Below, in pieces: positions 48,212 to 59,917 of a stretch of 64,000 nucleotides of DNA (the stretch's first letter is position 1; every line of letters begins with the position of its first letter). Source of the stretch: a virus (taxonomy: Duplodnaviria; Caudoviricetes); IMG/VR virus record IMGVR_UViG_3300010260_000160, positions 2,000 through 65,999 of that record; one strand, written 5' to 3'. Under the pieces are notes generated by a model. It worked only from the letters and a program-made list of their open reading frames with translations. It ran no database searches and was not told the origin of the DNA. A program made the translations under genes and the position numbers.

Positions 48212-49217
48212 TTATAGAATATTAAATTGTTTCAAGTATTCTGAACAAGAAAAATTTTTCCGCGGCCTATAATCCGCAAAAGACATCTTTTCAAATATCA
48301 TTTTCTTGTTGACCCAACGAGCCATATCCTTTTGCCATTCCGGAACAGGTCTGCCCGGGTTATCCGGGTCTCTGAATGGCTGTGCGTATGGATATACCCT
48401 GCTTTTGTGATGCTGCTTTATAAGTTCCTGATTCTTTCTCCAGAAGTGATTTATACGATTGTAGCACTCGACAAAGTTGTTATTGAGCATTGTGTATAGG
48501 AAATACTGCCCTTTGAATCCGAATGAGTTTATCAATTCAATGGCCCTTTCGCATTCTCTTATCTGACCTGGAGTATCGCAACCGAACCTGATTCGGTAAT
48601 CAATCCACTTGATTCTTGATAGCAGTGCAGCATTCTCATCATTAACGAGCCGAGCATCCAGTGCCTGATTGAAGTCTATTCGGTAACCTCTGTCAATGAT
48701 TTTCTGAAGTTGTTTTAGCGCATAATCACCTGCTGCAAGTATGTTGTTGTCCATAAGCACGGCTTTGGTGCGTCCATCAACACAGATGTCATCAATGTCC
48801 ATATAAGGCTTTACCCCCCCCCTCTTTACGAGGAACTACACACCATTTACAATGGTTCGGACAACCTCGTGTTAGAAAACCGTAGGCAGTATCCTTCGGA
48901 ATCAAAGGATATATTGAGTAATCGAGTTTTGCTCTGTCAATGTATTCAGGCAGTTTTGAATGTATATCATAACCAGTTCCACCTTTAATGACTTCATCCG
49001 CATCTACATAGAAATCAATATCCGGAGAGAAGTTGAAGACTTTTGAGATATATACTCTATCGCAGTGTCCGGTAAACATCGGCTCATACCAAACGACCTC
49101 ATCACCATTTGTCTTATGCCAACCGGCTATCTTGCAAAGCGCAATGTTCGGATAGATGGTCGCGCCGAATTTCTTTTTCTTGGCGTGACCATCTACATCA
49201 ATAAGTCCTATTTTCAT
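48212..49217 (-). pseudogene. Radical SAM protein, frameshifted at a G9 tract
   Basis: The 5' part (48792-49217) has TRGCPNHCKWC (CxxxCxxC); the 3' part (48212-48802) has LMDNNIL and DFNQALD. G8 would read through as KEGGVKPYMDI. Confidence 0.85.
48814..48822 (-). repeat. Poly-G tract (G9 on the coding strand)
   Basis: C9 on the plus strand, exactly at the frame break. Confidence 0.95.
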
Positions 49218-49286
49218 TTTGAACTGATTCTATCGCTTGGAAAATTCTGAACATAACCTGAGGCACAATGGCATTGCCATAGGCTT

Positions 49287-50132
49287 TTATTGATTCATTT
49301 CTCCATTTGTGGAAACCCAGGGAAGTTCTGTCCATAATCTTGGAAAGCCCATCATCTCTTGTGTGAACAGGGGAGACAGTCGGAAAGTGATTCCACCAGG
49401 TTCCTTCAAACCAAGTATCGTGGGAAGCGTGCTCAACTGGTCGTCCCTCGTCATTCCATTCTTGCGAACCATAGCATCCGGATTGTACGGAGGCTGATAG
49501 TCTCTCGCGGAAGGTGTCGGCAGAAGACCGCTGCCGGCCAATGCCGAAAGGCTCTGCCCCATCTGGGAGTTCGGATTGTATGTGTTCGTAAATTTGTCGC
49601 CCTCTCTTGCTGTCGGTGTTGGCAGGAGATCCAGACGGATGAATTTCTGCTGACCGTCCACATTGACTTTGAGACCTTGCGTCTCCGGTGTCGGAAGCAT
49701 CAGACCTCTTTTCTGCGCGTAACCGTTGGCTATTTCCTGAGACAGTGTTCCGGTGCTGCTCGTCTTTGCCGCCGAACGCGGCAGGCTGTTCTTTCCATCG
49801 AAGGCCGTTGGTGTCTTGAGCATTATGTGCGATGAAGTACACTCTGTCTCTTCGGTGCGGTGCTCCGACAGCCGCAGCCGGTATAAGAATCGGCTGGACT
49901 TCGTATCCGATTGCCTCAAAATCTTTGCAGATGCGTTCAATGGTGAAGGATTCCTGGAGTCTGTATCTGTGAATACTGTCTCCCTCATCGAACAAAGTTG
50001 CTTCACATCCCAGGTCAGTGAGTATCCCACCTTCGACCATAGTGGTGATTCCAGCAACATTTTCACCAACGACCCAAGTGGGCCTGATTTCCGACACTGC
50101 TCTGAACATTTCTGGCCAGAGATAACGGTCAT
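49287..50132 (-). CDS. Nested out-of-frame ORF, putative beta subunit of the C5 methyltransferase
   Basis: 281 aa, entirely inside the alpha gene on the same strand; four [L/K]xTP-type repeats and a terminal RLSPLFTQEMMGFP (motif IX-like). Confidence 0.75.
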   Translation of the reverse strand: MTVISGQKCSEQCRKSGPLGSLVKMLLESPLWSKVGYSLTWDVKQLCSMRETVFTDTDSRNPSPLNASAKILRQSDTKSSRFLYRLRLSEHRTEETECTSSHIMLKTPTAFDGKNSLPRSAAKTSSTGTLSQEIANGYAQKRGLMLPTPETQGLKVNVDGQQKFIRLDLLPTPTAREGDKFTNTYNPNSQMGQSLSALAGSGLLPTPSARDYQPPYNPDAMVRKNGMTRDDQLSTLPTILGLKEPGGITFRLSPLFTQEMMGFPRLWTELPWVSTNGEMNQ

Positions 50133-50139
50133 CTTTATA

Positions 50140-50148
50140 CCCCCCCCC
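50140..50148 (-). repeat. Poly-G tract (G9 on the coding strand)
   Basis: C9 on the plus strand, exactly at the frame break just after motif IV. Confidence 0.95.
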
Positions 50149-50478
50149 GTTTTCCTGCATAGGAAAAAGGCTGGCAGGGGAATCCTCCGGTAAGAACATC
50201 AATGTGTCCGCGCCACTTTCTGAAATCCGTTTTTGTGATGTCATCATAACTGACACTTTCTGGGAACCAGTATTCAAGCACTTTTCGCCCGAATGGATTT
50301 ATCTCGCAATGAAATACATTCCTCCATCCAAGAAAAGCGGCGGCCACTTCCGGACCGCCGATACCGCTAAAAAGGCTTGCGTGATTCATTTGTATTTTCT
50401 AATCGAATTGAGTTTAAGGGAGTGAAGTGCAGAAAGCCTCCCCATTTTGTTAATAATCACAGCTGCACTTCTGTCGGT

Positions 50479-59645: not shown

Positions 59646-59917
59646 TCATTCGTTGACGGTATTCCCGGTATTCCTCAAGGAATTTTGTATGGATGTAATC
59701 TGTTTCCATTTCTCGTCTCTGTTTGCCCTGTTCACGAAGTCCTGCACTGCGAGTGCAACATCGTGTGTTAGTTTCCGAATATCCCTTACACGCATATCGA
59801 AGGTGAACACCGTTTTTCCATCCTCATCATCATACATACTGCCCCCCCGATTGTGATTTTCAGCCTTTTGGCATTCTTGATGCTCTCCACGAGCATTCTT
59901 TCTGTTTTTGAAAGCAT
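59646..59917 (-). pseudogene. Small gene interrupted at a G7 tract
   Basis: The ATG at 59917 lies 1 nt after the upstream stop and reads MLSKTERMLVESIKNAKRLKITIGG, stopping early. G8 would join it to the MYDDEDGKTVF ORF (59646-59837), giving 90 aa. Confidence 0.5.
59842..59848 (-). repeat. Poly-G tract (G7 on the coding strand)
   Basis: C7 on the plus strand at the junction of the two frames. Confidence 0.9.

Follow-up and report, generated by a model that had tools for sequence, protein, structure and literature searches.

Two overlapping reading frames of a prophage gene probably encode the two chains of a C5 DNA methyltransferase

We found that a prophage gene of 1.2 kb contains two overlapping reading frames on the same strand. 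The locus probably encodes a C5 DNA methyltransferase in the form of two proteins that share the same DNA and assemble into one enzyme; translation of both frames, binding of the two chains to each other and methylation are what we infer from the comparisons and models described below. According to the proposed mechanism, the outer chain (alpha, ORF1) would provide the large domain for AdoMet binding and catalysis (motifs I-VIII) as well as the closing helix (motif X), linked by a disordered tether that would correspond to the -1 reading of the beta gene. The inner chain (beta, ORF2) would provide the small, DNA-recognising domain, composed of an N-terminal anchor, several TRD modules in a row and motif IX. 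The two chains would form a single enzyme by non-covalent association, with a sequence specificity determined by how many modules beta has and of which kind. Same-strand overlaps of about 1 kb that encode two parts of one enzyme are very rare, M.EcoHK31I being the only case in the literature searched. Our literature searches returned no description of the two-frame methyltransferase family reported here, in which the dual-frame design is the rule for thousands of sequence clusters from phages of Bacteroidota, Bacillota and other phyla.

Layout of the locus and features of the two predicted chains

All coordinates given here are positions in the analysed stretch of 64,000 nt (the window), and all the features of the methyltransferase locus are on its minus strand. 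The outer methyltransferase reading is cut in two by a G9 tract (50140-50148; C9 on the plus strand) that lies inside both ORFs, giving the frames 50389-50135 and 50277-49198. Its 5' part (50135-50389, 84 aa) starts at ATG 50389 and terminates at 50135, directly past the run of nine Gs, at a TAA created by the extra G of the tract; this part carries motifs I (FSGIGG) to IV (GFPCQ) and matches PF00145 with an E-value of 1.6e-17. The 3' part (49198-50139; PF00145, E 2.7e-15) corresponds to the frame of motifs V-X. Past the tract, this frame opens with YKDDRYLWPEM and continues with the ENV motif (GENV; motif VI, 50064-50056), HRRDR (motif VIII, RxR; 49857-49843), an unstructured filler of low complexity (49827-49399) and motif X, YGNAIVPQV (49281-49255). 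The filler between HRRDR and YGNAIVPQV comprises about 145 residues and is rich in R, G, E, S and D.

The inner frame is +1 relative to the outer one. As the initial annotation had noted, an 846-nt ORF (281 codons, 50132-49287, starting with ATG) is located wholly within ORF 50277-49198 (359 aa), on the same strand and in a different frame, and its internal ATG is found 7 nt 3' of the G9 tract; the coordinates agree on both points. The idea that these 281 residues are the complete inner gene had to be abandoned: they are only the portion of beta that remains after the frameshift, and the start used by the family is a conserved ATG at 50247, 5' of the tract. The 5' part of ORF2 (50149-50247) begins MMTSQKRISESGADTLMFLPEDSPASLFPMQEN. 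In beta we recognised a putative anchor formed by residues 15-90 (49863-50090), which is co-encoded with alpha motifs V-VIII and predicted to fold as a helix and a long beta-hairpin. The LPTP-type units and the motif IX-like segment previously noticed in this frame are indeed read there. The former correspond to a TRD-like region (49383-49823), defined by short sequence motifs, with four PTP modules (MLKTPTAFDG, MLPTPETQG, LLPTPTAREG and LLPTPSARDY), and the latter to RLSPLFTQEMMGFP (49341-49382), which fits motif IX by eye and by its position. A search for direct DNA repeats among the four PTP modules found none, the modules being alike at the protein level only.

The motifs I, IV, VI, VIII and X that characterise a C5 DNA methyltransferase (PF00145 / TIGR00675) were all found in alpha, and an intact relative (L005) scored 112.8 bits with TIGR00675 against a cut-off of 100.65. 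Alpha does not have a TRD and motif IX between motifs VIII and X; TRD-like and IX-like sequences are in the +1 frame. An AlphaFold2 model of alpha was built on P0121, a relative that is in frame, intact and 97% identical to the window. The model is confident at residues 1-190 and 375-396. Its large domain matched M.HhaI (2uyc_A) in a Foldseek search, with an E-value of 2.7e-11 over approximately 190 columns, and the folded part also matched M.HaeIII (E about 1e-11). The motifs, the PF00145 matches and the pLDDT of 26-46 over residues 194-372 of the model bear out the earlier description of the outer frame as having motifs I-VIII plus motif X, with low-complexity sequence at the site of the TRD and motif IX.

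In the case of beta, searches against Pfam, NCBIfam and PDB, using the single sequence as well as a profile, gave no match, and a Pfam scan of all 34 members of the beta alignment gave a single match, to PF00145, in a member that probably carries the N-terminus of alpha. Since beta has no match in Pfam or PDB, its designation as carrying a motif IX and a TRD is based on short motifs, on their position and on the model. Beta is a member of phrog_1008, 'DNA methyltransferase', and alpha matches phrog_363. When beta was modelled alone the result was poor (mean pLDDT of 49), with the best values in the N-terminal region (block means of 70-86 for residues 41-80). The predicted elements are a helix at residues 18-28 and a long hairpin formed by residues 37-56 and 69-89.

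Conservation of the two-frame design and selection on both frames

The layout is kept in about 200 related loci from IMG/VR phages, prophages of several phyla and cultured Bacteroides and Paenibacillus phages. Database homologues number in the thousands for alpha and more than 1000 for beta, many of the latter aligning over the full length with 35-77% identity; a search of 1.84 billion representative proteins with a profile of beta detected 9208 clusters at E <= 0.001, and 4184 when the threshold was set at E <= 1e-10. We analysed the layout in three sets of loci. The first included 80 IMG/VR loci found with the inner protein, 4 metagenome loci and the window. Motifs I-X are contained in a single ORF (alpha) in 71 of these 85 loci, and ORF2 is always in frame +1 of ORF1 and open from 5' of motif IV to just inside motif X. 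The second set was drawn from genome assemblies of bacteria and archaea and consisted of 63 prophage loci, with members in Bacteroides, Phocaeicola, Prevotella, Parabacteroides, Pedobacter, Chitinophaga, Oribacterium and an Actinomycetes MAG, and about 55 of them show the two-frame layout. For the third set, 80 IMG/VR loci (78 distinct genes) were picked by similarity to alpha only, and are therefore free of selection for the inner frame. The +1 frame was open over at least 60% of ORF1 in 77 of the 78 genes, with a mean of 84%, versus a mean of 14% for the +2 frame, used as control; a motif IX-like string was present in 73 genes of this set. An interrupted inner frame in close homologues, which had been put forward as an observation that would speak against a nested gene, was thus looked for, and the frame proved to be open in essentially all the homologues examined.

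In a non-redundant set of 27 loci, the whole of ORF2 (245-377 aa) is contained in ORF1 (318-448 aa), and in most of them the ORF2 ATG is located 142 nt 3' of the ORF1 ATG (position 50247 in the window), where the sequence reads SYED in alpha and MKTSQKQ in beta. The overlap represents about 85% of the gene. Relatives have from 2 to about 9 PTP modules in beta, and the alpha filler grows in step with this number, with ORF1 reaching up to 578 aa. Whole modules are both gained and lost among relatives, and an insertion of this kind between close relatives is seen in two proteins (P0002 and P0003), which carry an additional module of 41 residues compared with the window. By analogy, this variable number fits a modular specificity subunit, and a detachable beta of this kind would offer phages a route to alter or broaden their methylation specificity. 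About 8-9 LLPTP modules, accompanied by a correspondingly long alpha filler, were observed in P0018, P0087 and P0233.

Among cultured phages, Bacteroides phage BS-TP4 has the same layout, with the outer gene alone annotated, and for Paenibacillus larvae phages such as Tadhana, GenBank has both nested CDSs as 'DNA-cytosine methyltransferase'. A paper on Paenibacillus phage genomes gives two C5 methyltransferase genes, with no comment on their nesting. Annotation pipelines mostly call one frame, and as a result the putative recognition subunit is missed; predictions of specificity made from the sole annotated protein of this family would be meaningless. The family also lends itself naturally to the testing of methods for overlapping-gene detection.

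Some relatives depart from the common arrangement. In the Firmicute phage Tadhana (L085:903-1973 and 1105-1809), the start of ORF2 is about 200 nt past that of ORF1, not 142, alpha is devoid of a hairpin insertion of approximately 30 residues present in the enzymes of Bacteroidota phages, and beta is devoid of the matching segment. In five loci that have no tract, ORF1 has an in-frame stop, located in motifs V-VIII in L070 and in the N-terminal part in L076, L077, L082 and L083, and ORF2 is still open. A locus of a Bacteroidales MAG (L116, 1245-2315) was considered as a canonical single-frame form and rejected, since a frameshift or deletion joins a truncated alpha directly to beta, with DLEAIG followed by SSNRFLFRL at the junction and loss of motifs VII-VIII; this copy is probably frameshifted or dead. 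The long partial matches P0233, P0240 and P0186, considered as another form, were also rejected, given that they follow the two-frame design and have longer fillers. None of the relatives examined proved to be a canonical one-frame form with PTP modules.

We then compared the openness of both frames with that of sequences in which synonymous codons had been shuffled. In 3000 trials on the window's own sequence, the inner frame was open over motifs V-VIII in 2.9% of the trials (mean of 2.5 stops), and not one of the 3000 kept the outer frame free of stops over the TRD-IX part (mean of 7.1 stops); the remaining, third frame has 18 stops across the same 942 nt of the window. For the 27 loci, the shuffles led us to expect 3.8 stops in the beta frame over motifs IV-VIII and 6.9 in the alpha frame from the repeat region to motif IX. 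The observed number of stops in both filler frames was 0 in 27/27 loci, with a per-locus probability of openness of <=0.04 (beta frame, IV-VIII) and <=0.0075 (alpha frame, repeats to IX). Regarding codon-position diversity, variability is highest at the third position of ORF1 codons across most of motifs I-VIII and once more at motif X, and in the stretch running from LKTPTA to motif IX it is highest at the third position of ORF2 codons; the motif IX-like segment is the least variable portion of ORF2. At the level of sequence comparison, these results show that both frames are held open and that selection changes frame twice. Because the ORF2 third position is the most variable there, the VIII-X interval of alpha is, on this codon pattern, a passenger that needs only the absence of stops.

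The N-terminal part of beta overlaps conserved motifs of alpha, and its conservation is partly a by-product of them. We compared the wobble diversity of ORF1 at conserved four-fold sites, omitting codons able to create stops, and obtained 0.71 outside the overlap versus 0.53 inside it (Mann-Whitney p 0.004), with values near zero where beta reads SSRxLFRL. Because the synonymous diversity of ORF1 drops inside the overlap, the N-terminal third of beta appears to be shaped largely, but not entirely, by alpha, and it is probably more than mere filler.

Model of the complex, alternative readings and known systems

A multimer model of alpha and the window's beta, which had been proposed in the initial annotation, was obtained in three runs together with three controls. 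The pair passed these controls, with an ipSAE of 0.83 compared with 0.31 for the best of the three; the mark attained by the pair is also attained by 58 of 80 solved complexes and by 2 of 110 mismatched pairs. At least 78% of the contacts were common to the runs, and the pLDDT of the partner was at least 60. In the model, the anchor of beta (residues 15-90) contacts residues 138-180 of alpha, beta residues 83-86 pair with the alpha edge strand 165-170, and motif IX of beta (258-263) packs on motif X of alpha (370-377) with low error. This prediction supports the binding of alpha and beta. Since both chains together look like single-chain C5 methyltransferases of solved structure, this likeness may account for part of the score. 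Taken with the comparative data and the wobble signature, the model argues for the proposal that the inner frame encodes a nested second subunit carrying the repeats and motif IX.

The same arrangement could in principle yield a single canonical polypeptide by means of two programmed frameshifts, +1 past motif VIII and -1 ahead of motif X. Reading alpha up to motif VIII, beta over the TRD and motif IX, and alpha again at motif X gives the textbook order I-VIII, TRD, IX, X, and the first LKTPTA module is directly 3' of motif VIII. However, two such frameshifts would leave without a reason the approximately 140 open codons of the inner frame 5' of the TRD and the 140-250 open codons of the outer frame across the TRD, and both stretches are open in nearly every locus. 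In addition, ORF2 has a conserved ATG, the nucleotide diversity of 0.40-0.56 at the first switch point indicates that there is no conserved slip site, and M.EcoHK31I functions as two chains (PMC2836561). We consider this explanation very unlikely. It is also hard to credit that the inner frame is translated into something different from a methyltransferase subunit, such as a regulator or an overprinted protein unrelated to it. Such a product would agree with the lack of profile-level homology of beta to any characterised domain, but the parts that alpha misses are exactly those that the motifs of beta resemble, the motif IX-like string is the most conserved segment of beta and is modelled against motif X of alpha, and the pairing of alpha and beta is universal in loci chosen by alpha. 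An inner ORF that is open by chance and has no coding role is practically inconceivable, as it is contradicted by the shuffles, the wobble signature, the +2-frame control and thousands of homologues. Our preferred reading is that of an enzyme formed by two chains.

The system closest to this reading, M.EcoHK31I, was reportedly described by Lee, Kam and Shaw in 1995. This enzyme of E. coli HK31 (YGGCCR) requires two chains, and its beta is nested in the other frame of the alpha gene (PMC2836561). It is presented as the one natural C5 methyltransferase with a frame-nested beta, with motifs I-VIII and X plus a predicted TRD assigned to alpha and only motif IX to beta, whose N-terminal part matters for association (PMC2836561, PMC3404938). 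The M.EcoHK31I-like design that had been suggested for the window therefore stands in part. The beta gene is contained wholly within the alpha gene, on the same strand and in the other frame, and beta has a motif IX-like segment. In contrast, the TRD of M.EcoHK31I is in alpha by its published description, whereas here the TRD-like modules are in beta and the VIII-X interval of alpha is unstructured. Judged by the same description, other differences are the overlap of about 85% of the gene, its presence in phages and prophages, and, in the subclade of the window, a poly-G tract inside both ORFs.

Other enzymes share some of these features. M.AquI is a two-subunit C5 methyltransferase that is split serially, the first chain having motifs I-VIII along with half the variable region, and the small subunit the other half of this region and motifs IX-X (PMC3404938). 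It is a natural split enzyme with motif IX in the smaller chain, as the present one would be with its IX-like segment; unlike M.AquI, the chains are here nested in two frames, and motif X, which in M.AquI is in the small subunit, is in alpha. The C5 methyltransferases of Bacillus phages SPR, phi3T and H2 have several tandem TRDs between motifs VIII and IX, and their multispecificity is taken as protection against several host restriction systems. The 2 to about 9 PTP modules in tandem are reminiscent of these enzymes, which, however, are single chains encoded in one frame, whereas the putative recognition modules are here in the chain of the second frame. In ShiLan-type actinophages, the methylase genes have out-of-frame HNH insertions (PMC11855218). 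In that case too the methylase reads through a stop-free filler with the real ORF in another frame, but that ORF encodes the homing endonuclease of an insertion that is mobile, and here it would be a part of the enzyme itself that spans most of the gene.

The poly-G tract and the frame state of the locus

Most relatives have no homopolymer at the site of the tract, with runs of only 3 Gs in 65 of 85 loci; tracts of G8-G10 are found in a subclade formed by the window, L001, L002-4, L005, L013 and L031. In the register of the window, G8 is the in-frame state for alpha and beta, and the pair reads AGKRGGYKDDRYLW and PMQENGGGIKMTVISG. The G9 tract of the window has one extra base relative to the register that is standard in the family, and as a result both genes are broken and their downstream halves swapped: alpha ends after motif IV, and the reading that starts at ATG 50247 of ORF2 runs into the V-X frame of alpha. 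With G10, as in L001, motifs I-IV are fused to the inner frame (beta). Because a G9 tract leaves the internal ATG at 50132 as the sole possible start of beta, the window copy is most likely OFF, judging from its reading frames. For beta to be still made when alpha is OFF, as had been suggested, translation would have to begin at this ATG, whose conservation does not extend to every relative.

Fusions of motifs I-IV to beta were identified in 19 distinct proteins among the matches (P0003, P0008, P0010, P0015, P0020, P0040 and 13 more), and one of them, P0040, is present on 8 contigs. All have the junction AG[KR]RGG, indicating that all 19 come from the lineage with the tract. The presence of P0040 on this number of contigs suggests that the fused state is stable or tolerated. 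A different frame change, located 5' of motif IV and not at the tract, was observed in P0021, P0033 and P0106, in which the first 57 residues or so of alpha (..KTDF..) run into the start region of ORF2, SSQEDSPVSLFPMQE.

A second G9 tract (48814-48822) splits a radical SAM-like gene (CPNHCKWC; 48212-49217, minus strand). Logan contigs of three runs, which show 1 substitution in 1801 nt with respect to the window, have both methyltransferase genes in frame. In these contigs the methyltransferase tract is still G9 and the next T is missing (G9+AT, giving KRGGDKDD as in P0121; G9+TAT in the window), and the radical SAM gene has a G8 tract and an intact frame. In a strain with 98% identity, the methyltransferase tract reads G8+TAT and the radical SAM tract is G7. 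All these lengths were read from contigs, which cannot display mixtures of lengths within one population, and for this reason real phase variation and homopolymer error are both possible.

If the G9 frameshifts were errors of homopolymer sequencing or assembly, the real prophage would be intact in alpha and beta, with no switching. This has some plausibility, although we rather doubt it. The near-identical contigs are one base shorter at each of the two G9 sites and have the genes in frame, and the three runs may be the window's own source. Nevertheless, the methyltransferase tract of those contigs stays G9 and it is the neighbouring T that is absent, which represents a different sequence and not a shorter run. 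The lengths of G8 and G7 in the 98%-identical strain, and the out-of-register fusions in 19 distinct proteins with the tract junction, one of them on 8 contigs, also argue against a mere error.

Homopolymer tracts in coding sequences whose length sets the frame are known from the methyltransferases of phasevarions. The tract described here is also a homopolymer inside coding sequence, and its length would likewise set the frame; unlike those systems, a single tract is shared by two overlapping genes, and a putative slip would re-assort their halves and not merely truncate a product. If real, a poly-G tract common to two genes would represent a novel form of phase variation. A broader proposal, speculative and in our opinion unlikely, is that the overlap co-encodes the alpha-beta interface and that the tract, in the subclade that has it, is a three-state switch re-assorting the modules of the two genes. 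The hairpin and edge strand of alpha (118-169) and the hairpin of beta (37-89) that would bind to them would come from the same DNA, read in two frames. As for the switch, G8 would give alpha and beta, G9 neither of them intact, and G10 the fusion of motifs I-IV to beta together with a V-X fragment whose translation would begin at the Met conserved in LWPEM, a fusion state that may still be active. Besides both G9 tracts, the third and last run of at least seven G or C in the window is a C7 on the plus strand, at 59842-59848.
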